Source of the DNA: Acidimicrobiales bacterium
GTDB lineage: Bacteria > Actinomycetota > Acidimicrobiia > Acidimicrobiales > JAHWLA01
NCBI GenBank assembly: GCA_036260075.1
Contig: DATAAM010000223.1
Span: 1,489-25,488 of the forward strand
DNA length: 24,000 nucleotides
Direction: 5' to 3'
Shown here: piece by piece, positions 3,009 to 16,392 of the stretch
Layout: each line of letters opens with the position of its first letter
How positions within the stretch are numbered: the stretch's first letter is position 1
The notes under the pieces: generated by a model
Database searches by the model: none
The model's input: only the letters and a program-made list of their open reading frames with translations
Told to the model about the DNA's origin: nothing
Position numbers and translations under genes: made by a program

Positions 3009-4676
3009 TCACCGCCGCCGACGCCGGGGCCCGTAGCCATCGCCCGCCGCCGGCAGGCTCATCGCGAACGCCGCCCCGCCTCCCGGGTTGTCCGCGACCC
3101 ACAGGTCGCCGCCCTGCTCGCGCATGAGCCGCGAGGCCACGTACAGCCCGAGTCCCGAGCCCTCGGTGCCCGCCGACGTGGATCCCCGACGGGCGCGCTC
3201 GAAGACGGTCCGCCGTTCGGCGACGGGCACGCCCGGGCCTTTGTCGGCCACCGTCACGACCACCCAGTCGTCGCGGACCTCCCCCCGCACCTCGACGGGG
3301 GTGCCGGGCGCGTAGCGGGCTGCGTTGTCGAGGAGGTTGCGCAGCACCTGCACCGTCTCGGTGGGCCGGCCGACGGCCACGAGGCGGTCGTCGACGTCGA
3401 GCGTGACATCGTGGCCGCTTGAGCGTTCGAGGAGCACGACCGGCTCGATCACCTCGCACACCGGGAACGGCCGCGGCTCCTCCCGCTCCCGCGCGGCCAC
3501 CAGCTCCTGCAGCCGGCTGACCTCGGCTCCGAGCGCGTGCGTCAGCGCGTCGACCGTGCCCGCGTCGAGCTCGTCGTGGCTCCGACCGAGCAGGTCGGCC
3601 ACGCCGCCTATGGCGAACAGAGCGGAGCGCACGTCGTGCTGTCGCTCTTCGAGCGCTTGGCGCTCCGCCTCGCGCTGTGCCTCGATGCTGCGCACGCGGG
3701 CCTGCGAGCGCCGGAGCGCGGTGGCCTGGCGAGCGTGCTGCTCGTGCAGGTCGCGGTTGACGCCCATGAGGGCGAACAGCACGCCTTCGAAGCGGAGGAT
3801 GCGACTGGCGGCCAGCCACAGCGACCCCGCCGGGTAGGTGACGGCCAGGGCCATCCGGGCTTCGCCGAGGCCGAGCAGCATGAGCGCCAGCCACGCGTAG
3901 AGCGGGCGGTCGCGTGCGTCGGCGCACACCCAGAAGCGGACGGCGAGGAGCAGCACCACCCCGGCCACGAGCGCGTGTGCCACCGCCTGCCCCGCCGACG
4001 GCACCGTGCCCTCGCGCCGTCCGGCCAGGATCTCGGCGGTGGCGGGTGAGAGCACGAGCACCGTCGTGAGAACGGCCAACCCGAAGAGGGCCATCACCCC
4101 GGCGCGCGCCGGGGGGACCGTGCGCAGCCGGTCGCGCAGGCGTCCCGGAAGCGGGAAGACGGGCAGGGCCAGGACGAGCAGGCCGACCACGAAGCCGAGC
4201 GGCGGGACGAGCTCAACGAGTGTGTCGTCGCGCGCCCCCACGGGCAGGCGGGGGAGGACGAGCTCGTCGAAGCCCACGAACACGGCCCCGAGGATCACGA
4301 GGCCCACCCCGACGGCGATGTCGCGCCGTTCGCCCAGGAGCCGCCAGCGCAGCAGCACCAGCGCACCGACGACGACCGCGATCACCGTGGTCGAGGTGTC
4401 GAGGATGTCGTTCACGGAGGCCATGGCCTCGGTCGCCCCGTAGCCGCCCGCGTCGAGGGCTGCGAACACTCCCCAGGTCAGCCCGGTTATGGCCAGCGCC
4501 AAGAGCAGCGGCCCCGTGAACGGCCGGCGATCCGAGCCGCGCGGCCCGTCGGCTGCCTGGGCGCCGCCACCGCGCGCCGGGCGCGCCCACCGAGACCCCC
4601 CTTCCTCCGCTGCCATGCGGGCCCGCCACGGTCGTCCGAGCGGGACGCTTCCGCCCGCTGCTGAACCCATGTGCAC
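3009..4676 (-). CDS. Sensor histidine kinase with a multi-TM N-terminal domain. No response regulator is adjacent.
   Basis: H-box-like ERQHDVRSALFAIGG. ATPase boxes LRNLLDNAARYA, DKGPGV, GSGLGLYV. Several hydrophobic helices in the N-terminal half. The start is uncertain (4676 or the internal Met near 4616). Confidence 0.85.
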   Translation of the reverse strand: MHMGSAAGGSVPLGRPWRARMAAEEGGSRWARPARGGGAQAADGPRGSDRRPFTGPLLLALAITGLTWGVFAALDAGGYGATEAMASVNDILDTSTTVIAVVVGALVLLRWRLLGERRDIAVGVGLVILGAVFVGFDELVLPRLPVGARDDTLVELVPPLGFVVGLLVLALPVFPLPGRLRDRLRTVPPARAGVMALFGLAVLTTVLVLSPATAEILAGRREGTVPSAGQAVAHALVAGVVLLLAVRFWVCADARDRPLYAWLALMLLGLGEARMALAVTYPAGSLWLAASRILRFEGVLFALMGVNRDLHEQHARQATALRRSQARVRSIEAQREAERQALEERQHDVRSALFAIGGVADLLGRSHDELDAGTVDALTHALGAEVSRLQELVAAREREEPRPFPVCEVIEPVVLLERSSGHDVTLDVDDRLVAVGRPTETVQVLRNLLDNAARYAPGTPVEVRGEVRDDWVVVTVADKGPGVPVAERRTVFERARRGSTSAGTEGSGLGLYVASRLMREQGGDLWVADNPGGGAAFAMSLPAAGDGYGPRRRRR

Positions 4677-4703
4677 GTCCTCGCGATCTCGGTCGCTGTC
4701 GGT

Positions 4704-4720
4704 GACGAGTCTTACTCGTC
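4704..4720. promoter_or_regulatory. Palindrome immediately upstream of ATG 4721, in the divergent histidine kinase / PRTase intergenic region
   Basis: gacgagt-ctt-actcgtc: 7-bp perfect arms with a 3-nt spacer. Confidence 0.25.
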
Positions 4721-5332
4721 ATGAGCGCCTTCGAGTTGAGGACCCGGTGCTACGGTCGCCGCTCGATGACCGTCGACGAGGCCCGAGAACGCCTGGTTTC
4801 GGTCCTGTCGCGAGGGATGAGCACGGCGGTCGGCGAGCCGTTCACGCTCAGCTCCGGAGCCCGCAGTTGGGTCGTGTTCGACTGCGCCGACGCCATCTGC
4901 GACGACGACACCCTCGGCTTCGTCGTCTCCTACCTGCTCGACCACGTCGACGTGGACTGCGACGCGGTGGGCGGGCCCGCCCTCGGTGCCGGGCCCCTCG
5001 TCTACGGCGCGGGCGCGGTGGCGGGACGGCGTTGCTTCCTGGTGCGAGAGGCGCAGAAGGGGCACGGGGTCGGAGGCTGGTTCAAAGGGCACTTCCGACC
5101 GGGCGACCGGGTGCTGGTGGTGGAGGACGTGGTGACCACCGGCGACTCGCTGCTCAAGGCCATGCGCGTGGTGCGCGACCAGGGCGGGGTCGTGGTCGGT
5201 GCGGCCACGCTGATCGACCGGGGCGATATCACCGCCGCCAAGGTCGCCGAGGAGTTCGGCGTGCCCTACGTGCCGATGACGACGTACCGCGACTACGGCG
5301 TGGACCCCGTGGAAGCGGTGCCGTCGGCCTGA
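4721..5332 (+). CDS. Orotate phosphoribosyltransferase-like type I PRTase (PyrE family), chromosomal
   Basis: FTLSSG block, flexible-loop-like REAQKGHGVGGWFKG, PRPP loop VLVVEDVVTTGDS, LIDRG. Possible alternative start at ATG 4766 (MTVDEARERL). GC content matches the flanking core. Confidence 0.65.
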   Translation: MSAFELRTRCYGRRSMTVDEARERLVSVLSRGMSTAVGEPFTLSSGARSWVVFDCADAICDDDTLGFVVSYLLDHVDVDCDAVGGPALGAGPLVYGAGAVAGRRCFLVREAQKGHGVGGWFKGHFRPGDRVLVVEDVVTTGDSLLKAMRVVRDQGGVVVGAATLIDRGDITAAKVAEEFGVPYVPMTTYRDYGVDPVEAVPSA

Positions 5333-5338
5333 GCCGAG

Positions 5339-5343
5339 GCGGT
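5339..5343. repeat. Left copy of the 5-bp target-site duplication GCGGT
   Basis: gcggt directly abuts IR-L. An identical gcggt directly abuts IR-R at 12641-12645. Confidence 0.7.
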
Positions 5344-5359
5344 GGGCTACCGACAGAAC
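5344..5359. repeat. Left terminal inverted repeat (IR-L)
   Basis: gggctaccgacagaac. The reverse complement of 12625-12640 is gggctaccgacacaac. 15/16 identical, with the first 12 perfect. Confidence 0.75.
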
Positions 5360-5365
5360 TGTCCT

Positions 5366-5387
5366 GACGTGGGGTTACCCCAGCGTC
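5366..5387 (-). terminator. Hairpin downstream of the PRTase cassette
   Basis: gacgtgggg-tta-ccccagcgtc: a 9-bp stem with one bulge, located between the stop at 5428 and IR-L. No U-tract. Confidence 0.3.
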
Positions 5388-5427
5388 TTGCGGATCGGTT
5401 CCCCCCTCTGCTGGGTCGCGTTCCCAA

Positions 5428-6282
5428 CTACCCGCCGGGAACGGCTGCCTGGCGAGCCTTGGACTCAAGAGCTGCGAAGTCAGCATCACCGAGTTTGAGT
5501 ACCGCGTTCAGGTTCAAACGGTGCTCATCGAGCTTCGTTCGTGCAGACCCTTCGCTTCGCTCAACGAAGACGAACGCTTCACGAACGATGAAGCCTGCCT
5601 CCCGCGCTCGACTCGCGGTCTCCACTAGAAGCTCTCCATCAGTTCCGACGTCGTCCAGCAAGAGTCCTCGGCCGTGGGTAACGGCCGACTCGACGTATTG
5701 GCCGTCGAGGGGCGAATCACGAATAACCACCGAAGGCAGCTTCAAGATCTGGGCAACGGTCAGTCCGAGGATGGGGTTACCGGATTTCGGCAAGATAAGA
5801 GCGTGGTAATTTTTGACGATAATGTTCTCATTAATACTTTCAGCCAGGATCTCGGCTAGTACCTTAAGATGTGCTTCTGTCAGTACCGCTTCTCTGAGAT
5901 CTAGGGAGTAGCTAGCTTTTACAGCTCCACTTTTGCCCAACGTTTGAGGAGTGTCAGACTTCTTTAGATGAAGAAACATTACCCATTCAATGGGGCTCAC
6001 TTCGTTTGGTGTGGGGAAACCTTCCTTTGCAACCTGTTCTGGCGCGACATCTACGAAGTGCGATTTCTTCTCCGCCGGTGATTCCTCGGCTGCTTCGACC
6101 GCAGGTGGAGACACATCGCCGGTCCTGCGTCCCTGCAGGACCCCGTATAGAAATGCCAGAGCCCCCAACAACAACGAACCGCCCGCTAGCAACGGTTGAT
6201 CCTTGAGCATCACTGCGCCCAGGATCCCGCCGAGCGCGACGGGGAACGGGCCTCGCACCTTCTGCAACCATTGCCAGTCCAT
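5428..6282 (-). CDS. 2TM membrane-anchored protein with a divergent PRTase-fold C-terminal domain
   Basis: ATG 6282 is preceded by GAGGAA about 6 nt upstream; the track ORF begins at TTG 6348. Two hydrophobic helices: FPVALGGILGAVML and LLAGGSLLLGALAFLYGVL. PRTase core: ALILPKSGNPILGLTVAQILKLPSVVIR ... GLLLDDVGTDGELL ... FVFVERSEG. Confidence 0.7.
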   Translation of the reverse strand: MDWQWLQKVRGPFPVALGGILGAVMLKDQPLLAGGSLLLGALAFLYGVLQGRRTGDVSPPAVEAAEESPAEKKSHFVDVAPEQVAKEGFPTPNEVSPIEWVMFLHLKKSDTPQTLGKSGAVKASYSLDLREAVLTEAHLKVLAEILAESINENIIVKNYHALILPKSGNPILGLTVAQILKLPSVVIRDSPLDGQYVESAVTHGRGLLLDDVGTDGELLVETASRAREAGFIVREAFVFVERSEGSARTKLDEHRLNLNAVLKLGDADFAALESKARQAAVPGG

Positions 6283-6374
6283 GGGGGTTCCTCGTTCTGC
6301 GCGACCTGCGGCGGTACGGAGGAAGTCTAGACGGCCGAGTGCTAGCAAAGGTGACCAGTGGGGGGGCGGATATG

Positions 6375-6752
6375 CTAAATCTGATTCTCAGGTCTCGAAA
6401 GGACCTCGTAAATTTCTTCTCGCAGAAGGCGAGCCAGTCCAGCGCCCTCTTGGGCCGTGTTTGCCTCAAGCACCGCTTGCAGATGGCGCCTGAAAACTTC
6501 ATTCAGACTTGTAATTGCACCTTGTGGCAACGCCCCATGGCTGTCCCAGACGTCGCTGATGACGGCAAGCGCACGTGCAATCCCACTGTACCGAGCATCG
6601 CCAGAGTTGTCAGCTGCGTCCCAGCAGTAATTCTCCAGCTCCTGAACGGCCGGAGCAGACAGCAGGCCGTCAGTTATCAGTCGTTCAAGCGATGACGCGT
6701 CCATCCGGTACCGGTTCGATGCCCAAATCATCGTAGGTGATAAGTGGCTCAT
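6375..6752 (-). CDS. Hypothetical 125-aa protein, the middle gene of the PRTase cassette
   Basis: ORF in the low-GC segment, co-directional with and overlapping the 3' end of the upstream OPRT-like gene. Candidate starts are 6752 (GAGGGG upstream), 6731 and 6704. No family recognised. Confidence 0.5.
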   Translation of the reverse strand: MSHLSPTMIWASNRYRMDASSLERLITDGLLSAPAVQELENYCWDAADNSGDARYSGIARALAVISDVWDSHGALPQGAITSLNEVFRRHLQAVLEANTAQEGAGLARLLREEIYEVLSRPENQI

Positions 6753-7347
6753 AGACGCGAACCCCTCGTTCGCGCAGACGTTGACGGGTCGTTTCTCCGC
6801 GGTCGACCAGCGTGACTGCCATGACTACGTCGACTTGGAACGGTTCAAGAGCATCAAGCGCGTCGAGAATCGAGCGACCAGTCGTAGCAACGTCATCAAG
6901 GAGCAGTACTGGAAGACCGGGCGTGAGCGTCGCGCCCACGATGCGCTGACGCTTTCCGTGTAGCTTCTCGTCCTTCAGCACGGAGAACCAGAGCTTCTGA
7001 GCTGTAAAGGCAACAGCGTGCGCCAACGGATCCGCTCCGAGGGTCATGCCTCCAGCTGCGTCGAACTCCACGCCAGCCTGCTGGGTGAGCTCAAGGATCG
7101 CCTCGCCAACTCGCTGAAGGCAAGTGCCGTGAGCGAGAGCGCGTTTGGCATCGACGTAGTCGTGACTGAGATAGCCGGACGATAGTTCGAACGGCTCTGC
7201 TCGTCGCTCGTACCCCCACTTCGCCACCATGGCGATGATCGAATCTCGCAACTCGGACACGCGACTCAACTCCCGAGGCCCGCTCGGGCCACGGCGATCA
7301 GTGTAGGAGTTCTCCGGTTCGGTGTGGACACCGCTGAATCCTTGCAC
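6685..7347 (-). CDS. Orotate phosphoribosyltransferase-like type I PRTase (PyrE family), transposon-borne
   Basis: FELSSGYLSHDYVD, loop LKDEKLHGKRQRIVG, PRPP loop VLLLDDVATTGRS, LVDRG, C-terminus TYDDLGIEPV. The likely true start is GTG 7260 (GGGAG 9 nt upstream); the track start is GTG 7347. Confidence 0.75.
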   Translation of the reverse strand: MQGFSGVHTEPENSYTDRRGPSGPRELSRVSELRDSIIAMVAKWGYERRAEPFELSSGYLSHDYVDAKRALAHGTCLQRVGEAILELTQQAGVEFDAAGGMTLGADPLAHAVAFTAQKLWFSVLKDEKLHGKRQRIVGATLTPGLPVLLLDDVATTGRSILDALDALEPFQVDVVMAVTLVDRGETTRQRLRERGVRVYEPLITYDDLGIEPVPDGRVIA

Positions 7348-7402
7348 AGTCCGCGCCTTCCTTCTCGGGCAGGGCCCGCCAGTTCGGACTCTCAGGTCCT
7401 TG

Positions 7403-7447
7403 ACTCTGAACTCCAGACTTCAGAATCCGAAGTTCGAAGTTCAGAGT
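7403..7447. promoter_or_regulatory. Operator-like repeat cluster between the PRTase cassette and the wHTH gene
   Basis: 9-bp inverted repeat actctgaac (7403-7411) / gttcagagt (7439-7447). TTCAGA half-sites at 7419-7424 and 7440-7445, 21 bp apart. Tandem gaagttc x2 at 7429-7442. Confidence 0.5.
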
Positions 7448-7474
7448 ACGCTGGGCCCTGAGGAGGGAGGGTGG

Positions 7475-7789
7475 ATGGTCGGAGCGAAGAGCCGGGACCA
7501 AGTCCAAGCTCTTTCGAAGAGCGCTTTGGGCCGCGACCATCGATTGACCCTTGCGCGTGCGATCCTCGCCAGGGGCGACGACCTTTTCGATCTTGCCACG
7601 CTCGAAGAAGCAACGGGGGTGCCAGACGCGACCGTCTTCAGGGAGGTGGCCGAACTTCACGATCTTGGAGTTCTGAACAGGGTTGAGGATCGGAATCGAG
7701 TCTTCTACCACAGAGTGGACAGTCCCTTCTGGGCCTGGTGCCAAGAACTCCTCGACCGTGTTACTGGAGCCGACTCGTCGGTTCGCTGA
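7475..7789 (+). CDS. Small winged-helix (ArsR/MarR-like) transcriptional regulator
   Basis: ATG 7475 with AGGAGGGAGG at 7461-7470. HTH-like segment LATLEEATGVPDATVFREVAELHDLGVLNRVEDRNRVFYH. Divergent from the PRTase cassette. Confidence 0.65.
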   Translation: MVGAKSRDQVQALSKSALGRDHRLTLARAILARGDDLFDLATLEEATGVPDATVFREVAELHDLGVLNRVEDRNRVFYHRVDSPFWAWCQELLDRVTGADSSVR

Positions 7790-7822
7790 GTACATTGCAC
7801 TTGGCGATGCCTGTCCCGCCAC

Positions 7823-8026
7823 TCAACCGGCGTTTCGCTCTGCCCAGCGCACGATCTCCGAACGCAGCCAGAGCCTCGTACGACCGCCCCCACGCTCGAC
7901 GACCGGGCGGGGCATGTCGGCGTAGCGCTTTTGGTACGTGGAGACGCTGTTGCGGTGCGACAGACCGAGGAGCTCAGCGACCTCTTGCGCGTCGATCAGG
8001 TCCTCCGTGTTCACCTTCGGCGCCAC
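7823..8026 (-). CDS. Excisionase/AlpA/MerR-type small HTH DNA-binding protein
   Basis: LIDAQEVAELLGLSHRNSVSTYQKR ... RLWLRSEIVRWAE matches the Xis-family HTH pattern. GTG start at 8026, 6 nt after a TAGACT -10-like hexamer on the minus strand, which suggests a leaderless transcript. Confidence 0.65.
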   Translation of the reverse strand: MAPKVNTEDLIDAQEVAELLGLSHRNSVSTYQKRYADMPRPVVERGGGRTRLWLRSEIVRWAERNAG

Positions 8027-8044
8027 GCGGCCAGTCTACGAGCG

Positions 8045-8073
8045 TTGACAAACCTCGGGTGGATCCCTAGTCT
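8045..8073 (+). promoter_or_regulatory. Sigma-70/HrdB-like promoter for the 8154.. operon
   Basis: TTGACA (8045-8050), 17-nt spacer, TAGTCT (8068-8073). Confidence 0.45.
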
Positions 8074-8085
8074 ACGAACGTAGAC
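8070..8085. promoter_or_regulatory. Perfect 16-bp palindrome overlapping the -10 hexamer; probable operator
   Basis: gtctacgaacgtagac. The 9-mer agtctacga also occurs at 8033-8041 and 8069-8077. Confidence 0.45.
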
Positions 8086-8153
8086 ATACCAGGTGGCCGG
8101 GGCGCTGCGCGAACAGCCCCCGGCCTGGCCGATTCCTGCAAGGAGGAACCGAC

Positions 8154-8423
8154 GTGGCCGAGGCTACGACAGCGAAGGCACCGTCCCACGCGACCCGCAA
8201 GACGATCGTGCATGCGACCGACAGGGGACTGGAGCTCGAACAGGAAGTGGAGGCGTTCGCCGTCCACGCCAGTGAGGCGTTGGAGGCGTTCACCGAGGAC
8301 GTAGGACCGCTCAACCTCTCCGACAAGCGGTACGAGCTGGTCGCGGCTGCGTCCGGCCTGGCGGGCCTGTTCAACCTCGTGGAACGCATGAGGGAGACGC
8401 TGGACGGGGTGACGGCGGCATGA
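8154..8423 (+). CDS. Hypothetical 89-aa protein
   Basis: GTG 8154 with AGGAGG at 8141-8146. ATGA overlap with the next gene. Confidence 0.55.
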   Translation: MAEATTAKAPSHATRKTIVHATDRGLELEQEVEAFAVHASEALEAFTEDVGPLNLSDKRYELVAAASGLAGLFNLVERMRETLDGVTAA

Positions 8424-8647
8424 CGAGGTATCCCGGCATCCACGTCTTCACCGCTCGCATGCCCGTCGGCGAGTACGAGGCACTGAAGGCATTCGCCTAC
8501 TTCACCCGACGTCCGATCAACGACGTCGTCCTGACGGCTGTTCGGTCCTACCTGCGGCAGCAGGTGGCCGAGGACCACCTGAACGAAATGGTGGAGCAAC
8601 TGCGAGCGACGCTCCACGAGACGTTCGAAGCCCTCGGAGAGCGGTGA
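8420..8647 (+). CDS. Ribbon-helix-helix (CopG/Arc-like) protein
   Basis: ARMPVGEYEALKAFAYFTRRPINDVVLTAVRSYL fits the RHH strand-helix-helix pattern. About 40% identical over 40 aa (hand alignment) to the chromosomal ORF 20191..20421. Confidence 0.6.
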   Translation: MTRYPGIHVFTARMPVGEYEALKAFAYFTRRPINDVVLTAVRSYLRQQVAEDHLNEMVEQLRATLHETFEALGER

Positions 8648-8904
8648 TGGCACGCGCCGCATCGCCAAGGTTGCCGATCGACCCCCTGCTCCGGCTCTGC
8701 GACGGCAACGTCGGTCTTCTTGCAGAGGCGCTCCGGCGACCTCGTCGGGTCATCACGCGGTGGAAGACCCTCGGGTTGCCGCTCGTCCAAGCGGACAGAT
8801 GCGCCGTGGCGGTCGGGCACCACCCGGTCGATCTCTGGCCCGACTGGTACGAAGCGACCGAGGCTTGGGCCACACACCGGAGTCGACGGTGTCGGGCCGC
8901 GTAG
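8644..8904 (+). CDS. Small putative DNA-binding protein
   Basis: GTGATG overlap with the RHH stop. The segment VITRWKTLGLPLVQADRCAVAVGHHPVDLWPDW resembles small HTH proteins of actinobacterial mobile elements (from memory). Confidence 0.45.
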   Translation: MMARAASPRLPIDPLLRLCDGNVGLLAEALRRPRRVITRWKTLGLPLVQADRCAVAVGHHPVDLWPDWYEATEAWATHRSRRCRAA

Positions 8905-9015
8905 TTCGGGGCGAGATCCCGAGGGCGTTCGCTCGACGAGCAGCGCGATCTGCTGGTCGGCCTCCGCGCCCTGCGGAACTACGGGCCTGAAGCCGCCGAG
9001 GCGGTCGAGGCTGTC

Positions 9016-9204
9016 ATGGAGCTGGGTCTGATCCGGCGCCTGCTGCTGTCCTGGGAGTTGGCCGTCGAGCTGGCCGAGGCCGAGGGCAGGGATGGGCGGC
9101 AGGCCATGGTCGACCTGCTCGGTGCCGATGATGCCGAACTCATCGAGGCAGCGCTGTTCGACCCGGTTCCCCGGCTCGTCTGTCTCGACGGCGGGGCCGG
9201 ATGA
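9016..9204 (+). CDS. Hypothetical small acidic protein. Same frame as 8644..8904, separated only by a TAG at 8902-8904.
   Basis: The frame is open from 8905 and coding-like (SLDEQRDLLVGLRALRNYGPEAAEAV...), but the first canonical start is ATG 9016. Confidence 0.35.
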   Translation: MELGLIRRLLLSWELAVELAEAEGRDGRQAMVDLLGADDAELIEAALFDPVPRLVCLDGGAG

Positions 9205-9209
9205 CCCGC

Positions 9210-9338
9210 TCAGGCGACTCTGTGCTCGGCGAGGAACCGCTTGGCGGCGACGCGCAGGATGCCGACGATCGTGCGGTCCTCCGCCTCGGCGACAGCCCGA
9301 AGCTGGTCGTGCAGGTCGGCAGGCAGCCGAATAGTCAT
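9210..9338 (-). CDS. 42-aa ribbon-helix-helix protein
   Basis: MTIRLPADLHDQLRAVAEAEDRTIVGILRVAAKRFLAEHRVA is the C-terminal part of track ORF 9210..10433. It shows the RHH pattern and shares RLPAD with the other two RHH ORFs. The RBS is weak. Confidence 0.45.
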   Translation of the reverse strand: MTIRLPADLHDQLRAVAEAEDRTIVGILRVAAKRFLAEHRVA

Positions 9339-9818
9339 GGCTCGATCGGCTTGGTTCTTCTTCACCAATCGCGACGGTATCGCCGAGGCCCTACGGCAAC
9401 GCGGATCCGCCACATGGCTCGTACCTGCCCGGCACCATGTGGTTGCCCGCGGTACCGCAGTCGTCTGCGAGGGTCGGAAAGCAGTAGGGGGCCGCCCGCT
9501 CCGGAGGTATCCGGAGAAAATGGCCAGGACCGGGATGGCGACGACGTCCCCGGGAGCTCGGGAGCCCCGCTCCTGCGCGACGGAACGTGTGAGTTGGTTT
9601 CGTCGCGCAGGAGGATCAGGTTGGCTTCGCAGATCGAGCAGTTGGTTCTCGAGGTGGAGAACCCGAGCCGATGCCCGCATCCATCCGCTGTCACATGCCG
9701 GGACCGGCATGGCGTCCGACTGTGGAGTCGTGTCCTTGGAAGCGCGACAGGCGCGTTTGCTCGCGATCGCAGTTCTCCGCGTTGGGATGCGGGAGAGCCG
9801 TGGCGGGACCGAGACACT

Positions 9819-10723
9819 GTGACACGCCGGATCAGCCGGTTCGTGCCGAGCAGTGTGCCGCCCGACGTCTGGGAGCGAATCGCTCCGTCCGTCCGACGAG
9901 CGGCCGAACGAGCCGGCTCTACGCCCTACAGCGCCACCGCTCTGGCTTCGGTCACCGCCCAGCTCCTCCACTGGTGCGACCGGGAGGGGCTCCCGCTGCG
10001 CGATGAGGTCGTGCTGCACCCCGACACGGTCGACCGCTTCATTGCGGCTGGGTGCGGTCATCTCCGGCACGGGACTCGCCTCAACTATCAGAGCCAGCTT
10101 CGCCGAGTGGGCGAGCTTCTCGTCGGTCCTCCGCTCTATCCGACCCGCAGATATTCGACCGGCTCCTCCGACCCGATCGCTCCGTACACGGAGGAGGAGG
10201 TCGCCGCCCTCCTCGGGTGGGCACGCGGGCTGAGCACGGCCCGCATGCGGCAGAACTCGCTCGTCCTCCTCTCCTTCGGACTCGGTGTGGGCCTGACCAG
10301 CCGGGAACTGAATGCGCTCGTCGGCACCGACGTCGCCTCGGACGATGACGGAGTCCTGGTGCACGTCGTCACAGGGCGTCGCCGCCGTGTCGTTCGCGTG
10401 CTTCGCAGGTGGGAAGAGCATGTCCACACGCACGCCGAACGAGTCGGCGGGAAGGGGTATTCCTGCCGGGCCGTGATCGTGTCGGCCGCAAGGACATCAG
10501 CCGCTTCGTGGAGGGTTGTCCTCGGTCGGATGCCCCGAAGCTGAGCGTCCAGCGTCTTCGAGTCACTTGGATCGTCGGCCATCTGTTGGCGGGTACGCCG
10601 TTGCCGGTTCTCGAAGCCGCGGCCGGGGCCACGGCGTCGCAACTGGCCGCCTACGCGGCGTACATCCCCGAACCCGACGAGGCCACGGCGAACCACTGGT
10701 TGCGGGAGGCGACCTCGCCGTGA
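9819..10723 (+). pseudogene. Tyrosine-recombinase (phage-integrase fold)-like gene, apparently frameshifted
   Basis: Frame 0 gives YTEEEVAALLGWA...GLGVGLTSRELNALVGTDV...VLVHVVTGRRRRVV. The homology-like sequence then continues in frame 2: VFLPGRDRVGRKDISRFVEG...LSVQRLRVTWIVGHLLAGTPLPVLEAAAG...YAAYI. The switch lies at the G-run 10454-10457. The proposed start at GTG 9819 is uncertain. Confidence 0.5.
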
Positions 10724-12480
10724 CCTTGCCCACCCTCGCGCCCATGGCAATGCCCTCGTACGAGGACTTGCCTCGGCGCGGCGGGTGGACATTCGACGAC
10801 GACACCGTCCGTTGGGCGATGCGAGTGATCGACCGTTCTGGCTTGGTCGAGCAGTTGGACACATGGGCGGCTGACGCACGCCGGGGACCGGGAGGCCGAC
10901 CTGAGACGTTTCCACGGCGGGCCTTGCTCGTTGCCATAGCACTGGCCGCTCGGGAAGGACTGGCGATGCAGGCATTGGTGTTCTGCAACGTCCTCTTCCG
11001 TCACATCGGGCCGACCATGCGCGCCGAGTTGCGGGTTCCCAATCCGCCGTCGGAATCCGATGGGCATGGCTGGAAGGCCGTGTATCGCAACGTCAGGACG
11101 CGCCTTCATGGGATCCTCGAACTGGTCGACCCTTCGCCGTACCCCAAGAACCGCCGACTGGACGCAGCGGCGTTCGCAGAGCGCACGAAGGATCTTTCGG
11201 CCGACGAGATCGCGGAGCGCATCGAGAAGCTCACGTGGCTGGCGAACCGGATCATCGAGGCAAGCCTGCGAGAGTGCCCGGCGGAGATCCTCGACAACTG
11301 GGACGGCTCGATCGGACTGGATGCCACCCCGATCCGACTGTACGCCCGTCCTGAGAGGAGAGCCCGCGGTCGGCGAGGCAAGCAGCTGGTGGAGGTTCAT
11401 TCGTCCGATCCCGATGGGGCCTGGTACATGCGCGAGCACGATCACCGGGATCCCGATACGCAGCCCGACACGGGAGCGAAGAAGGGGAAGCAGGTCGCCA
11501 AGGCGTTCTGGGCGCAGGAGGCCACGATCGCCACGGCCAGTTCGAGCGATCCGCGAGCCAAGAGGAGCTTCCCCAAGCTGGCTGTCGGCATGGCTTCGCT
11601 TCACAAGCCGGGCCACCATCCCGACGAACACGGCATCCGTGCCTTGGCGAGCATCAAACAGCGCGGCCACCCCAGCGGCCTCCTTGCCGCCGATCGGGCC
11701 TACACCAACTCGAAGCCCGAGAACTTCCAACTGCCGGCTCGGGCCATGGGATACCGCCTGGTCCTCGACTACCGCGAGGATCAGCTCGGCATCCAGGGCT
11801 CGCATGCCGGAGCGCTCCAGATCGAAGGCGGATGGTCCTGTCCGTGCTTGCCGGAAGCGCTGGTGGATGCAACGGCCGACTTCCGTGCTGGTGGCATCAC
11901 CGAAGACGTGTGGCGTCAACGGCTCAGGGCACGGACGGCGTACCGGCTCCGGGAGAAGGAGCGACCCGACGCTGAAGGTCACGTTCGCCTCCAGTGTCCT
12001 GCCGCGGGACCGGCACCTACCTGCCGCTGCCCGTTGAAGCCCGCGTCCGTCTCCGATGCCACGGCCGGCAAGCCCCTCGTCCTCGTCACCGACGACGTGG
12101 CCCAGAACCCGCCTGCCATCTGTCGGCAGCAATCGGTGACCTTCCCCCCGGACGCCGGTGCCAAGTACCTCCAAGCGCTGGAATACGAGTCGCCCGACTG
12201 GCGCCGGGCCTACCCGACCCTGAGGAACTCCATCGAGGGCACGAGCGGCACGGCCAAGGACGGGGCCTACGAAGCTCTCGGCATCGCCGACAGGCGACGG
12301 ATCCGTGGCCAAGCGGCCCAAACCCTGTTCGTCGCCTTCCTGTTGTTCGGGACGAACCTGCGCATGATCGACAGCTTTCGGGCCCAGGCAAAGGCGGAGG
12401 AGGACGGCGTCATGCGCTTGCCCCGAAAGCGGCGACGGAAGACCCGGCCTCTGTCCGACCACCTGCCGACGACGATCTGA
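10720..12480 (+). CDS. DDE transposase, IS4-superfamily-like (IS4/IS1634/IS1380-type)
   Basis: GTG 10720 overlaps the upstream stop as GTGA. N-terminal GRPETFPRRALLVAIALA (InsH-N-like). Candidate catalytic residues are the D in IGLDATPI (aa ~201), the D in LLAADRAYT (aa ~325) and the E in YPTLRNSIEGTSGTAKD (aa ~506, a Y-R-E-K-like signature), followed by FLLFGTNLRMI. Confidence 0.75.
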   Translation: MTLPTLAPMAMPSYEDLPRRGGWTFDDDTVRWAMRVIDRSGLVEQLDTWAADARRGPGGRPETFPRRALLVAIALAAREGLAMQALVFCNVLFRHIGPTMRAELRVPNPPSESDGHGWKAVYRNVRTRLHGILELVDPSPYPKNRRLDAAAFAERTKDLSADEIAERIEKLTWLANRIIEASLRECPAEILDNWDGSIGLDATPIRLYARPERRARGRRGKQLVEVHSSDPDGAWYMREHDHRDPDTQPDTGAKKGKQVAKAFWAQEATIATASSSDPRAKRSFPKLAVGMASLHKPGHHPDEHGIRALASIKQRGHPSGLLAADRAYTNSKPENFQLPARAMGYRLVLDYREDQLGIQGSHAGALQIEGGWSCPCLPEALVDATADFRAGGITEDVWRQRLRARTAYRLREKERPDAEGHVRLQCPAAGPAPTCRCPLKPASVSDATAGKPLVLVTDDVAQNPPAICRQQSVTFPPDAGAKYLQALEYESPDWRRAYPTLRNSIEGTSGTAKDGAYEALGIADRRRIRGQAAQTLFVAFLLFGTNLRMIDSFRAQAKAEEDGVMRLPRKRRRKTRPLSDHLPTTI

Positions 12481-12624
12481 GCCTCACGAGCCGAGGTACC
12501 GGCCTTCAGAGGCGTCCTGTCGAGCAGGTCAGAACGGCCTTGAAGGTGCCTCTGGGCATCCTCCGACCAGATCAGGGGCCTGCTGGCCACCGATTCTCCG
12601 GGTTTTGTCGGCGGGAGCCGCCCG

Positions 12625-12640
12625 GTTGTGTCGGTAGCCC
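12625..12640. repeat. Right terminal inverted repeat (IR-R)
   Basis: gttgtgtcggtagccc is the reverse complement of IR-L with one mismatch. Confidence 0.75.
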
Positions 12641-12644
12641 GCGG

Positions 12645-12645
<1 letters not shown>
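12641..12645. repeat. Right copy of the 5-bp target-site duplication GCGGT; overlaps the tRNA 3' terminus
   Basis: gcggt is identical to 5339-5343. On the minus strand it reads ACCGC, i.e. the discriminator A plus CC of the tRNA and 2 further nt. Confidence 0.7.
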
Positions 12646-12728
<83 letters not shown>

Positions 12729-12817
12729 GTGGAGCAAGAGAGAGTAGCCGAACTGCGGCCTCCGCCCGTCCGTCGAACCGGGGCGGGCCGGACCCGTGGG
12801 TAAGGTACGGCCCGACC

Positions 12818-13474
12818 ATGGGACTCCAGCAGTTCGAGCGGCGCCTCGAACGCCTCGTCGAGGGCGTCTTCGCCAAGGCCTTTCGCAGCGGGCTCCAGCC
12901 CGTGGAGGTGGGTCGCCGTCTGACTCGGGAGATGGACCTGCACCGCACGGTCGGCGTGCGCGGCGTGCTCGTGCCCAACTGGTTCGAGATCGCGCTCGCC
13001 CCCGCCGACCACGAGCGGTTCGCCCCCTTCGAGGAGAGCCTGCTGCGCGACCTGGCCGACATGGCCCGCCAGCACGCCCGCGACGAGGGCTACTCGTTCG
13101 TCGGGCCCGTCGAGATCGCGCTCGAGCCGGATCCCTCGCTCACGCCCGGCATGTTCCTCGTCTCCTCCGAGGTGCGGGAGGGGGCGGGCGGCGGCGAGCC
13201 CGGGTCCCTCGTGCTGCCCGACGGCACCCGCGTGGAGGTCACCGGCGACCCCGTCACCATCGGCCGCCTGCCCGACTGCGACATCGTGCTCGACGACCGC
13301 AACGTGAGCCGTCGCCACGCCGAGGTGCGCCGCACGCCCAACGGCTTCACCGTGGTCGACCTCGACTCCACCAACGGCACGCGGGTCAACGGAGCGGGCG
13401 TCAAGGAGCGCCGCCTGGCCGACGGCGACAGCATCACGGTCGGGACCACCACCATTCGGTTCGAAGCCTCCTAG
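12818..13474 (+). CDS. fhaA: FhaA-like protein (DUF3662 N-terminal domain plus C-terminal FHA domain)
   Basis: MGLQQFERRLERLVEGVFAKAF N-terminus. FHA block VTIGRLPDCDIVLDDRNVSRRHAEV...STNGTRVNG. Synteny with fhaB-pstP-rodA-pbpA-pknB. Confidence 0.85.
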   Translation: MGLQQFERRLERLVEGVFAKAFRSGLQPVEVGRRLTREMDLHRTVGVRGVLVPNWFEIALAPADHERFAPFEESLLRDLADMARQHARDEGYSFVGPVEIALEPDPSLTPGMFLVSSEVREGAGGGEPGSLVLPDGTRVEVTGDPVTIGRLPDCDIVLDDRNVSRRHAEVRRTPNGFTVVDLDSTNGTRVNGAGVKERRLADGDSITVGTTTIRFEAS

Positions 13475-13484
13475 AGGGAGCGCG

Positions 13485-13922
13485 ATGCCCGAGTCGCTGC
13501 TCACGATCCTGAAGTTCCTCTTCCTGGCCCTGGTGTGGCTGTTCTTCGCCCGCGTGCTGCGGGCGGTGTGGGCCGAGCTCTCGCCCGCCGCCGAGCCCGC
13601 CCCCGCCGTCGGCGGCGGCCGTGGCGGAGTGGCCCGCCTGAAGGTGGTCGAGCCCGCCGACAAGCGGGGCCTCGCCTTCGACGTGGGCGACGAGCTCACG
13701 GTGGGCCGGGCGGGTGGCTGCCAGATCGCGCTGGAGGACGACAAGACCGTCTCCCAGCTCCACGCCCGCGTCTTCAGGGGGGCGGAGGGGCGCGTCTACG
13801 TCGAGGATCTCGGGTCGACCAACGGCACCTACCTCAACGCCAAGAAGCTCACCGGTCCCGCCGCCCTCCACCGAGGCGACCGCCTCCAGGTCGGCCGCAC
13901 GGTGCTGGAGGCCACCAAGTGA
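13485..13922 (+). CDS. fhaB: FhaB/FipA-like membrane-anchored FHA-domain protein
   Basis: N-terminal TM helix LLTILKFLFLALVWLFFA. FHA block LTVGRAGGCQIALEDDKTVSQLHARV...STNGTYLN. RBS agagggag. Confidence 0.85.
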   Translation: MPESLLTILKFLFLALVWLFFARVLRAVWAELSPAAEPAPAVGGGRGGVARLKVVEPADKRGLAFDVGDELTVGRAGGCQIALEDDKTVSQLHARVFRGAEGRVYVEDLGSTNGTYLNAKKLTGPAALHRGDRLQVGRTVLEATK

Positions 13923-15094
13923 CCCGCCTGCGCGCCGGCGCCGCCACCGACGTGGGGCGCGTGCGGAAGAACAACGAGGACAGCCTGCTCGTCTCCTCGC
14001 CGCTGTTCGCCGTCGCCGACGGCATGGGCGGCCATGCCGCGGGCGAGGTGGCCTCGAACATCGCGGTCGAGACGTTGGCCCAGCGCTTCGAGGCCGACCA
14101 CAGCGCCAATGGCCTGGCCGAGGCCGTGCGCGCCGCCAACCGTGCGGTGTGGGAGCGGGCACAGGCCGACCACGGCCTTCGCGGCATGGGCACCACGATC
14201 ACGGCCGTGGCGCTGGTGGAGGACGGCGACGACGAGGTGCTGGCCGTCGTCAACGTGGGCGACTCCCGCGCCTACCGCCTCCAGAACGGCGAGCTCGAAC
14301 AGCTCACCGAAGACCACAGCCTCGTCGAGGAGCTGCGCCGCAGCGGCCGCATCACCGACGACGAGGCCCGGTCCCACCCGCAGAAGCACGTCGTGACTCG
14401 CGCGCTCGGCATCGAGCCCGACGTCGACGTCGACTGCTTCCGAGTCCTGCCCTACAAGGGCGACCGCTTCCTCCTGGCCAGCGACGGCCTGTTCGACGAG
14501 GTGGACGACCCCGCCATCGCGTCCACCCTGCGGCGCGTGGCCGATCCCGACGAAGCGGCCCGCACGCTCGTCGACATGGCCAAGTCGGCCGGGGGCTCCG
14601 ACAACATCACCGTGGTGGTCGTCGACGTCACCGACGACGGCGACCGCGCCGCCAAGGCCTCGGCAGCCATCGAGGACGAGGACACACCGGCCGTCGTGCG
14701 GGCGTTGGCCCAGCGGGCCCGCGCCGTGAAGCGGCCCAGGCGGCTCACGCTCCGCGTGGCGCTCTTCGTCAGCGTCGTCCTGCTCGTGCTCCTCGGCGCC
14801 GTGGCCGCCGTGGGCGTGTTCGCCCGAGGCGCCTACTTCGTCGGCCTCGACGGCGACGAGGTGGTGATCTTCCGCGGTCGCCCCGGCGGGCTGCTGTGGT
14901 TCGACCCCACCGTGGAGGTGCGCACCGGCATCCCGGTCGAAGACGTGCCCGCCGCCCGCGTCGACGCCGTCCGGGCGGGCAAGGAGGAGCCCAGCCTGGG
15001 CGCCGCCCGGCGCTACGTCGAGAACCTGCAGGAACAGGCCCCCACGGCCACGACGACGACGTCGTCCACCGCACCCCCCACGTCGGCACCGTGA
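13919..15094 (+). CDS. pstP: PP2C-family Ser/Thr phosphatase with a C-terminal TM and extracellular segment
   Basis: GTG 13919 overlaps the fhaB stop as GTGA. RVRKNNEDS, ADGMGGHAAGEVAS, GSDNITVVVV. TM helix LRVALFVSVVLLVLLGAVAAVGVFA. Confidence 0.9.
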   Translation: MTRLRAGAATDVGRVRKNNEDSLLVSSPLFAVADGMGGHAAGEVASNIAVETLAQRFEADHSANGLAEAVRAANRAVWERAQADHGLRGMGTTITAVALVEDGDDEVLAVVNVGDSRAYRLQNGELEQLTEDHSLVEELRRSGRITDDEARSHPQKHVVTRALGIEPDVDVDCFRVLPYKGDRFLLASDGLFDEVDDPAIASTLRRVADPDEAARTLVDMAKSAGGSDNITVVVVDVTDDGDRAAKASAAIEDEDTPAVVRALAQRARAVKRPRRLTLRVALFVSVVLLVLLGAVAAVGVFARGAYFVGLDGDEVVIFRGRPGGLLWFDPTVEVRTGIPVEDVPAARVDAVRAGKEEPSLGAARRYVENLQEQAPTATTTTSSTAPPTSAP

Positions 15095-16392
15095 GGCGCG
15101 CCGCCCGTCGCGACACCGAGCTGGGGCTGCTCGTGATGGTCGCGCTCGTGACGGTGGGCGCCTACGCCCTGGCCAGCCTGGGCAAGAGCGCCTCCCTCCC
15201 GGTCGACATCGGTCCGTTCCTCGCCGTCATCCTCGGCCTCCTCCTGGCCGCCCACGTGGCCGTGCGCAGGCTGGCGCCGGGCGCCGACGCCGTGCTTCTG
15301 CCGCTGGCCGGGCTCCTCAACGGCATCGGCTATGTGTTCATCGCCCGCCTCGACAACGACCTCGCAGGCCTCCAGGCCACGTGGACCGCCCTGTCGGTGG
15401 TCGCGTTCGTCGGCACCCTGGTCGTGGTCCGGCGCGTGCGCGACCTGGAGCCGTACCGCTACACGTTCATGCTCCTGGGCATCGGCCTGCTGCTGCTCCC
15501 GCTGGCGCCCGGCATCGGCCGCGTCATCAACGGGGCCCGCCTGTGGGTGAGCCTCGGTCCGATCACCTTCCAGCCCGGCGAGCTCGCCAAGGTGGCGCTC
15601 GCCGTCTTCTTCGCCGCCTACCTGGTGGAGAAGCGGGAGCTGCTGGCCGAGCTGCGCCTGACCCGAGGCCGCCTCCCCAGCGTGCGCATCATCGGCCCGC
15701 TGCTCCTGGCGTGGGGCTTCTCGCTGCTCGTCATGACTGCCGAGCGCGACCTCGGCTCGTCGCTCCTCTTCTTCGCCCTGTTCATCGGGATGGTGTGGAT
15801 CGCCACCGCCCGGGGCGAGTACCTGGCGCTCGGCGTGGTGCTCTTCGGGCTCGGGGCCACGTTCGCCTACACATCCTTCGGCCACGTGGCTGCCCGCGTG
15901 CAGGTGTGGATCGACCCGTGGTCCCGGGCCGCGGGCGCGGGCTACCAGCTCACGCAGAGCCTGTTCGCGCTCGGCACCGGCGGCTTCGGCGGCACCGGCA
16001 TCGGCCTCGGCAGCCCGGGCCGCATCCCCGCCGCCACCACCGACTTCATCTTCGCCGCGGTCGGAGAAGAGCTCGGCTTCCTCGGCACCGCCGCGATGAT
16101 CACCGCCTACCTGTTGATGGTGGGCGTGGGGCTGCGCATCGCCGTCCGCTCCGACCAGCCGTTCGAGAAGCTGCTCGCGGCCGGGCTCACCACCATCCTC
16201 GGCGTGCAGACGTTCATCATCGTGGGCGGCGTCACCCGCCTGGTCCCGCTGACCGGCATCACGCTGCCGTTCGTGTCCTACGGCGGCTCGTCGCTGGTGG
16301 CCAACTACGTGCTGCTGGCGCTGTTGCTGCGCATCTCCGACGACACCGCCCGCCGGGCCGTCAACCGGGCCACGGCCGAGGCGACGGCCTGA
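15091..16392 (+). CDS. rodA: SEDS-family peptidoglycan polymerase (FtsW/RodA)
   Basis: GTG 15091 overlaps the pstP stop. Polytopic membrane protein with FtsW/RodA-like blocks: INGARLWVSLGPITFQPGELAKV, TDFIFAAVGEELG, PLTGITLPFVSYGGSS. Confidence 0.9.
   Translation: MRRAARRDTELGLLVMVALVTVGAYALASLGKSASLPVDIGPFLAVILGLLLAAHVAVRRLAPGADAVLLPLAGLLNGIGYVFIARLDNDLAGLQATWTALSVVAFVGTLVVVRRVRDLEPYRYTFMLLGIGLLLLPLAPGIGRVINGARLWVSLGPITFQPGELAKVALAVFFAAYLVEKRELLAELRLTRGRLPSVRIIGPLLLAWGFSLLVMTAERDLGSSLLFFALFIGMVWIATARGEYLALGVVLFGLGATFAYTSFGHVAARVQVWIDPWSRAAGAGYQLTQSLFALGTGGFGGTGIGLGSPGRIPAATTDFIFAAVGEELGFLGTAAMITAYLLMVGVGLRIAVRSDQPFEKLLAAGLTTILGVQTFIIVGGVTRLVPLTGITLPFVSYGGSSLVANYVLLALLLRISDDTARRAVNRATAEATA

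Follow-up and report, generated by a model that had tools for sequence, protein, structure and literature searches.

The stretch of DNA examined here, a window of 24,000 nucleotides (nt) from an Acidimicrobiales bacterium (NCBI GenBank assembly GCA_036260075.1, contig DATAAM010000223.1, positions 1,489 to 25,488), carries a cassette of three genes on its minus strand, referred to below as g1, g2 and g3, which form a real, horizontally mobile, co-inherited set. They encode an enzyme with the orotate phosphoribosyltransferase (OPRT) fold, a small helical protein of an orphan family and a membrane-anchored OPRT-fold protein that lacks the catalytic loop, and a divergent regulator lies upstream of them. 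We tentatively read the cassette as a horizontally mobile, repressor-controlled conflict module built on the OPRT fold and serving phage defence, abortive infection or element addiction, an interpretation that we hold to be quite possible. Toxins and effectors with a phosphoribosyltransferase (PRTase) fold are known from ShosTA, PsyrTA, type III retrons and Ophion. The cassette had been singled out in an original prediction, and the three minus-strand open reading frames (ORFs) on which that prediction was built are all present at the coordinates it gave.

An OPRT-like enzyme and an orphan helical protein form the core

The first gene, g1 (6685-7260, minus strand), encodes a soluble OPRT-like PRTase of 191 residues, whose start at 7260 is favoured by the NCBI gene model (P0003) and by the homologue alignments, which begin there; an upstream GTG at 7347 is the alternative. 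The type I PRTase fold is recognised by Pfam (PF00156, 31.1 bits, over the cutoff of 26.3), and the closest sequences in the PDB are the actinobacterial OPRTs 2p1z and 5hkf. The three motifs that had been put forward as OPRT hallmarks, FELSSG, KDEKLHGKRQRIVG and LLLDDVATTGRS, were all found and align with the OPRT hood, flexible loop and phosphoribosyl pyrophosphate (PRPP) loop, respectively; the reference in these alignments of g1 and g3 was an Escherichia coli OPRT sequence entered by hand. The flexible loop keeps the K-x-x-K-x-H-G pattern of PyrE (KDEKLHG, with K96, K99, H101 and G102); the PRPP loop retains its two aspartates, D122 and D123. With all catalytic motifs in place, g1 is predicted to be a catalytically intact OPRT-like enzyme.

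At the family level, g1 belongs to a group of about 300 homologues of 43-63% identity that share the signature S-H-D-Y-[IV]-D, where PyrE of Mycobacterium tuberculosis has ADYYVD, and it shares about 32-38% identity with annotated PyrE genes of actinobacteria. TIGR00336, the pyrE equivalog model, gives it 91.3 bits, below the cutoff of 106.8, and members of its family elsewhere score 98-122 bits. These scores straddle the cutoff, which therefore gives no clean separation, and an attempt to split solitary from partnered family members by it failed, as all scores lie near it. An altered base specificity could not be established from the SHDY signature, the stacking aromatic residue being retained.

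The second gene, g2 (6375-6704, minus strand), encodes a five-helix protein of 109 residues. Its start at 6704 (P0272) is the most likely one and gives a 20-nt overlap with the stop of g1; the ATG at 6752, which had been proposed originally and would give 125 residues, is the alternative. Of the two g1 starts named earlier, 7260 was upheld, and the g2 start was refined. None of the 34 homologues of g2 carries a Pfam domain; within the family, the motif G-D-A-R is invariant, and WC..D and LARLLRE are conserved. AlphaFold, given an alignment of 32 homologues, models the protein as an all-helical five-helix bundle with a predicted local distance difference test (pLDDT) score of 95.6. The earlier statement that g2 has no recognisable family was borne out, with no match in Pfam, NCBIfam, PADLOC or PHROG and no Foldseek match to the fold in the PDB or among the BFVD viral models at E<0.6.

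Searches with the g2 family returned 34 proteins, 4 species-level genomes and 10 metagenome loci (loci other than the window carry L numbers below). After duplicates were collapsed, 18 distinct g2 loci outside this genome were left, 12 of them informative, with flanks long enough to judge the presence of g3. The gene immediately upstream of g2 is g1 at 16 of the 18, usually overlapping it, and the linked loci include Mycobacterium sp. 1100029.7 and a metagenome-assembled genome (MAG) of Ca. Limnocylindria; the overlap measures 10-50 nt in the window and at L004, L007, L010, L013 and L015. The pair is thus small, usually overlapping and co-travelling on mobile elements, as are two-gene systems of the toxin-antitoxin (TA) kind. 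There are two exceptions. A distant g2 homologue is clustered with genes for a NovG-like regulator, a DegT aminotransferase, and PRPP-synthetase-like and thymidylate-kinase-like proteins, and in an Umezawaea sp. (L014, 5989-7761) g2 is followed by overlapping genes for a metallo-beta-lactamase-fold hydrolase and a SLOG cluster-4 protein, with no PRTase, which hints at a more general role of g2 as a partner of nucleotide-acting enzymes.

Among the 12 informative loci, g3 is intact at five, present as a remnant at one and missing from six. The co-occurrence of the three families, which the original prediction had named as a test of itself, is seen at five independent loci elsewhere, with the order changed once: it is g1-g2-g3 at L003-L005, L016 (the Ca. 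Limnocylindria MAG) and L026, and at L001/L002 a winged helix-turn-helix (wHTH) gene is divergent from g1-g3-g2, with g2 uncalled and in a different position. The remnant is at L006, where g1-g2 and a decayed g3 stand beside an integrase fragment and a putative tRNA gene that was read from the translation alone. A rough neighbour-joining tree of g1, which has no support values, places the g1 proteins of two-gene loci at the base and those of g3-bearing loci in one clade, whose sister is a large clade with the signature SSGGTSHDY.

g3 couples a membrane hairpin to a loop-less OPRT fold

The third gene, g3 (5428-6282, minus strand, start at 6282, P0001), encodes a membrane-anchored OPRT-fold protein of 284 residues, with a sequence 100% identical to that of a protein annotated as hypothetical in an Acidimicrobiales MAG. 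Two helices (residues 13-25 and 30-55) open its AlphaFold model (pLDDT 89.7), in which an acidic, disordered linker leads to an alpha/beta domain (residues 96-284, 5431-5997), and the model helices and hydropathy together delimit an N-terminal two-helix hydrophobic hairpin at about residues 12-51 (6130-6249). Hydropathy segments are found at the N-terminus of g3 and of its homologues alike, and the OPRT domain is predicted to be cytoplasmic because basic residues stand at both ends of the hairpin. The domain was delimited by profile, model, Foldseek and alignment; its best Foldseek matches are almost all OPRTs (E down to 5e-13), and a profile of close g3 homologues matches OPRT structures first (2yzk at 2e-12). 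The proposal that g3 joins two N-terminal helices to a PRTase core was thus confirmed, the fold being that of OPRT specifically. TIGR00336 matches g3 with 27.4 bits (2.5e-6), under its cutoff of 106.8, and there is no direct Pfam match, PF00156 being matched by 42 of 65 relatives.

In g3, four residues of the flexible loop are deleted, and neither the two lysines nor the histidine of the PyrE pattern are left. The pocket is kept, with D210 and D211 in the PRPP loop, K166 in the pyrophosphate (PPi) loop PKSGN and R242 as the equivalent of the base-binding R156, and these residues are invariant or nearly so among homologues. OPRT is a dimer in which an active site is closed by the flexible loop of the neighbouring subunit (title of PDB entry 1oro). 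With its own loop lost, its pocket kept and the OPRT loop acting in trans, g3 has the appearance of a pseudoenzyme that binds a ligand, or else of a subunit dependent on the loop of a partner. The PPi loop of g1 is of the actinobacterial GGxTxGADP type and that of g3 of the PKxGN type, so the two genes are not recent duplicates.

These features bear directly on the mechanism offered in the original prediction, by which g1 produces or consumes a phosphoribosyl compound, g3 senses it and arrests or kills the cell, here taken to be by permeabilising the membrane, and g2 acts as an adaptor, immunity or trigger factor, in a design resembling those of cyclic-oligonucleotide-based antiphage signalling systems (CBASS) and Pycsar. 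A conserved pocket whose catalytic loop is gone, an N-terminal membrane hairpin, relatives in which the g3-type domain is fused to patatin, an effector classically activated by a signal, and the presence of a repressor with g3 at all four loci where this could be checked, as expected for a dangerous effector, all fit such a scheme. Its signal and its reach are harder to accommodate: there is neither a nucleotide cyclase nor an oligomerising sensor, a monophosphate such as orotidine monophosphate (OMP) is an abundant metabolite and would make a poor alarm signal, and g3 is missing from six of the 12 informative loci, whereas g1-g2 is invariant, so that killing through g3 is not the general mechanism. 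Relatives of the g3 domain also occur in plain enzyme operons (with NUDIX, NT5C, HD or dCTP deaminase genes, one of them near a terminase), a sign that the domain may serve catalysis instead of sensing. What stands of the scheme is a g3 that has lost the loop and kept the pocket; what does not is its reliance on g3, which is not obligate, the core being g1-g2. As a whole, we regard it as unlikely.

The wider family was reached only by sensitive searching: a word-index search with g3 gave one homologue, and an exhaustive profile search gave 185 relatives at E<=1e-3. A scan with the g3 alignment found no relative in species-representative genomes. The domain occurs alone (about 190 residues), behind one or two N-terminal transmembrane (TM) helices, and in fusions with patatin, with NUDIX and, in a pVip-like arrangement, with a TM domain and a radical S-adenosylmethionine (SAM) domain. 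One patatin fusion lies with P-loop kinase and radical SAM genes (L008, 1154-4335). Elsewhere the domain is found between dCTP deaminase and HIT genes as a TM-PRTase-like protein (L034, 253-2526), in a series of HD, TM-PRTase-like, HD and ThyA-like genes (L033, 1135-6134), and, beside a terminase, with S-adenosylhomocysteine (AdoHcy)-hydrolase-like, NUDIX and NT5C genes (L020, 1770-4592). On phages and at defence loci, the g3 domain thus turns up repeatedly in operons centred on nucleotides.

A divergent regulator accompanies g3

Upstream of g1 and divergent from it lies a gene for a wHTH regulator of about 104 residues, counted from a conserved MVGA start (7475-7789, plus strand); the start at 7475 is probable, and the longest ORF begins at 7322. 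Its matches to the MarR_2, IclR and TrmB helix-turn-helix (HTH) families are weak, as is that to the PADLOC candidate PDC-M05A, and it shares 53% identity with its divergent counterpart at L001. Analogous wHTH genes of about 100 residues lie upstream at L004 and L026, and, overall, such a gene is present at four of the four g3-bearing loci with upstream sequence, while tblastn with the regulator of the window gave no match at any two-gene locus.

Between the regulator and g1, an operator-like imperfect palindrome spans 45 nt (7403-7447), with arms of 22 nt of which 18 positions are complementary, a level that none of 500 shuffled versions of the intergenic region reaches; L001 has a palindrome in the equivalent place (3288-3323). 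The divergent regulator and the palindrome had both been predicted and were recovered. A hairpin that had been described after g3 was not: no terminator-like site was found 3' of the gene, where the fold has a z-score of -1.1 and 30 of 200 shuffles fold equally well.

The cassette travels with mobile and defence genes

The loci at which the cassette was found are rich in restriction-modification (RM), TA, abortive-infection and mobility genes, and the neighbours of the cassette are the company typical of defence and addiction genes. They comprise a type II restriction endonuclease, a type IIG methyltransferase and DUF2637 at L001; AbiEii and IS21 at L003; a TrwC relaxase, a Gp49/HTH pair and the integrase fragment at L006; HigB, HEPN-MNT, two PIN-Phd pairs, UvrD-PDDEXK and a methyltransferase at L010; a SacI RM system with Vsr at L013; a relaxase at L016; and a tyrosine integrase adjoining gyrA at L026. 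A GHKL ATPase is also among the neighbours. No pyr gene stands beside the cassette at any retrieved locus, and the earlier expectation that homologous cassettes would not turn up in pyrimidine-salvage operons agrees with these surroundings.

Two of the loci deserve separate mention. In a Mycobacterium MAG (L029), g1-g2 lies near protein-kinase, cyclophilin and DUF881 genes, which we take to lie close to the origin in mycobacteria as well. At L006, divergent from g1-g2 (4292-7434, minus strand), a gene for a 508-residue protein with an N-terminal PRTase domain is followed by one for a 581-residue protein; neither has a PADLOC match, and the pair may be another PRTase-based two-gene system.

The same surroundings weigh on a plainer explanation, namely that the cassette is metabolic cargo, with g1 as an alternative enzyme for OMP synthesis or nucleobase salvage, g2 as its regulatory subunit and g3 as a membrane-tethered paralogue for base uptake or resistance to toxic base analogues. 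Such a role would suit an enzyme that has all OPRT catalytic residues and, together with its family, scores near the pyrE cutoff; it would also suit the solitary g1-family members in ordinary chromosomal settings and the distant g2 homologue clustered with NovG-like, DegT, PRPP-synthetase-like and thymidylate-kinase-like genes. It would leave unexplained why neither pyr nor uptake genes are near any locus, and why the cassette is found on transposons and on elements with integrase or relaxase genes, in the company of RM and TA genes. Moreover, a native-GC OPRT-like gene already adjoins the cassette in the window (4721-5332), mycobacteria with g1-g2 are expected to own a canonical pyrE too, and g3 has no catalytic loop. 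We consider metabolic cargo unlikely, if far from negligible.

Another possibility is that the enzymes rebuild or protect nucleotides depleted by host immunity, or destroy an immune signal, much as phages reconstitute NAD+ by way of PRPP chemistry. Carriage on mobile elements is what this would predict, a PRPP-dependent counter-defence encoded by phages is on record (bioRxiv 10.1101/2024.02.11.579819), and a terminase gene adjoins relatives of the g3 domain that are accompanied by NUDIX and NT5C genes. Yet searches of 50,697 phage records, 72,556 plasmids and IMG/VR gave neither g2 nor g3, no known defence that releases pyrimidine bases is linked to the cassette loci, and neither tight repression by a dedicated wHTH protein nor a membrane anchor would be expected of an enzyme that restores a pool. 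A counter-defence or pool-maintenance role therefore seems very improbable to us. In the same phage and plasmid collections, g1 is represented by distant pyrE-like genes only, on large actinobacterial replicons.

The cassette is carried by a discrete insertion

In the window, the GC content is 72-78% on both flanks and 52-69% within a stretch of about 5.4-12.6 kb, which is a discrete insertion of 7.3 kb (5339-12645 including direct repeats). Its ends are 16-nt inverted repeats with 15 of 16 positions matching, outside each of which is a 5-bp duplication, GCGGT, exactly at the step in GC content: the left repeat (5344-5359) is preceded by the direct repeat at 5339-5343, and the right repeat (12625-12640) is followed by that at 12641-12645, immediately next to the 3' end of tRNA-Leu(CAG). 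With terminal inverted repeats and a target-site duplication, the carrier has the structure of a transposon, and the three-gene cassette, with 56-60% GC against 67% in the remainder of the insertion and 72-75% in the host, is its lowest-GC part, as had been anticipated.

Family searches of the proteins of the 7.3-kb insertion found no recognisable transposase or integrase inside it. Two overlapping genes on its plus strand, for proteins of 447 (9201-10544) and 654 residues (10516-12480), have no Pfam, PHROG, PADLOC, NCBIfam or PDB match. Homologues of the 654-residue protein with about 31% identity, annotated as 'hypothetical', are found on seven Streptomyces plasmids; in the single plasmid region looked at (L035, 3760-6575), the gene is preceded by an overlapping gene for a protein of about 330 residues and by an HTH gene. 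The pair may be an undescribed transposition module. The insertion further contains an HTH_17/excisionase-like gene (7823-8026, minus strand), convergent with the wHTH regulator and weakly matching the PADLOC candidate PDC-M06B; HTH_17 genes of similar type are near the cassette at L003 and L016 as well.

On the left, the insertion ends 6 nt beyond the stop of the native-GC OPRT-like gene (4721-5332, plus strand), which is 34% identical to g1, scores 98.3 bits on TIGR00336, under the cutoff of 106.8, and has GfcR as a weak NCBIfam match. Three OPRT-fold genes, one of them native, thus lie within 2.6 kb, which is probably a coincidence. On the right, past tRNA-Leu, the flank (12796-16392, plus strand) contains fhaA (FhaA_N and FHA domains) and an FtsW/RodA-family gene, and resembles the conserved actinobacterial cell-division and signalling cluster that adjoins tRNA-Leu in mycobacteria.

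A repressor-controlled conflict module as the preferred reading

On the reading that we prefer, that of a mobile conflict module, g1 would be translationally coupled to g2 and would disturb the pool of PRPP or pyrimidine nucleotides, or make an OMP-like nucleotide, by analogy with ShosT. It would act once the hold of g2 is released, which makes g2 a candidate restraint or trigger sensor. In the clade that includes the window, this core would have been extended by g3 and by a wHTH repressor with a palindromic operator. There, g3 might read the activity of g1 by binding its substrate or product or, alternatively, pair with g1 through the OPRT dimer interface, and it would carry the response to the membrane: ligand-competent, loop-less, membrane-bound and accompanied by a repressor, g3 is the candidate output in the g3-bearing clade. 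The data show the gene structures, the folds, the motifs retained and lost, the co-occurrence and overlap of the genes, their settings on mobile elements and in defence islands, and the palindrome; the activities in this scheme, any toxicity, the contacts of g1 with g2 and with g3, and the trigger are inferences. A more specific version would have g1 held by g2 and, on release, either making an OMP-like or PRPP-derived ligand or lending its loop in trans to g3, with membrane damage or growth arrest as the outcome. An enzyme of pyrimidine biosynthesis and its loop-deleted paralogue would thereby make up a novel type of immunity or addiction circuit, and the wider g3 family, with its patatin, NUDIX, viperin-like, dCTP deaminase and HIT partners, would be an unrecognised sensor or enzyme module common to many conflict systems centred on nucleotides; this combination we find improbable.

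Several observations count against the conflict-module reading. The first concerns g1 itself, which is so OPRT-like (91 bits against 106.8) that it may carry out ordinary OMP synthesis, and which matches no known defence PRTase model, the PADLOC model of ShosT giving E=0.066 for g1, which is no match, and no match for g3. Furthermore, the two members of the SSGGTSHDY clade that were looked at stand alone, without g2 or g3, so that an activity of the g1 type is not obviously toxic. The membership of g1 and g3 in different OPRT lineages, as judged from their PPi loops, argues against easy heterodimerisation. As to distribution, the context survey covers about ten loci and is descriptive, the enrichment in defence islands having no statistics behind it, and the module is rare and mostly metagenomic, given the phage, plasmid and IMG/VR result above and the presence of g2 in 4 species-level genomes.

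If the cassette does serve defence or addiction, it adds an OPRT-based branch to nucleotide-centred immunity, defines two new protein families (the helical protein with the GDAR motif, g2, and the loop-less OPRT domain of g3) and suggests a function for about 185 uncharacterised relatives of g3, including the patatin, NUDIX and viperin-like fusions. Next to the known PRTase systems, the cassette is a simpler and distinct case: g1, barely diverged from a housekeeping enzyme, is easy to assay and is paired with a very small protein of novel fold. If it is plain metabolism, the cassette is a curiosity of actinobacterial mobile elements.

Comparison with known systems

PADLOC 2.0 leaves g1, g2 and g3 unmatched and does not include the module, and no paper describing this combination of genes was found in the literature. 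The nearest parallels are found among systems in which PRTases act as defence toxins or effectors, such as ShosTA (PMC11961720), type III retrons (PMC7736814) and Ophion (bioRxiv 10.1101/2025.09.30.679545). The PRTase of ShosTA, ShosT, is a PRPP-binding protein with toxic activity (PMC11961720). The cassette shares with ShosTA a small operon on defence islands or mobile elements, in which a PRTase fold proposed to disturb nucleotide metabolism has a non-enzymatic partner (PMC11961720, PMC12961424), and the g2 family is paired once with a SLOG-domain gene, DprA belonging to the SLOG superfamily. However, ShosT is related to adenine phosphoribosyltransferase and has a pyrophosphatase domain, whereas g1 is OPRT-like and single-domain; ShosA is DprA-like, whereas g2 is a helical protein of 109 residues; and the membrane paralogue is absent from ShosTA. 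An identity with ShosTA or PsyrTA was rejected, as the models do not match, and there is no DprA or SLOG gene in the window.

Type III retrons, like the cassette, unite PRTase-fold and winged-helix proteins at a mobile defence locus (PMC7736814, PMC12746101), but the winged helix of the retrons is a C-terminal fusion or a downstream auxiliary gene, while that of the cassette is divergent, about 100 residues long and repressor-like. The original statement that no reverse transcriptase is present here was corroborated, and a type III retron was rejected: no such domain was found in the insertion ORFs searched, Rfam finds tRNA only, and the PADLOC model PRTase_III-A matches neither g1 nor g3. Ophion, a validated anti-jumbo-phage system of radical SAM, PHP and PRTase proteins that needs the PRTase active site alongside enzymes that modify nucleotides (bioRxiv 10.1101/2025.09.30.679545), recalls the g3-domain relatives that are fused or adjacent to viperin-like radical SAM genes; it is gammaproteobacterial and was likewise rejected, as the cassette has neither a radical SAM nor a PHP gene. 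The small TM effectors of CBASS and Pycsar and the two-TM effector of retron Ec48 resemble g3 in their short N-terminal TM helices and in a cytoplasmic domain that could gate membrane damage, which for g3 would be a conjecture, but the cytoplasmic domain of g3 has the OPRT fold, and the cassette has no cyclase/CD-NTase, SAVED, CARF or cyclic-nucleotide-binding domain; CBASS and Pycsar were rejected because neither PADLOC nor Pfam gives a cyclase/CD-NTase match among the cassette or insertion proteins.

Beyond defence systems, the best matches of g1 and g3 are OPRTs, and g1 shares the fold and catalytic motifs of PyrE. Unlike PyrE, g1 is mobile, repressor-controlled and partnered, and g3 has gained a membrane hairpin and lost the catalytic loop. 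In PyrR, PurR and haloarchaeal GfcR, the PRTase fold is kept mainly for binding PRPP or nucleotides, as proposed for g3; these are nucleic-acid-binding regulators, whereas g3 carries a membrane hairpin and lacks any domain for binding DNA or RNA. Set against all of these, an OPRT-derived enzyme, its orphan-fold partner and a membrane-anchored, loop-less OPRT paralogue appear to be the undescribed features of the cassette.

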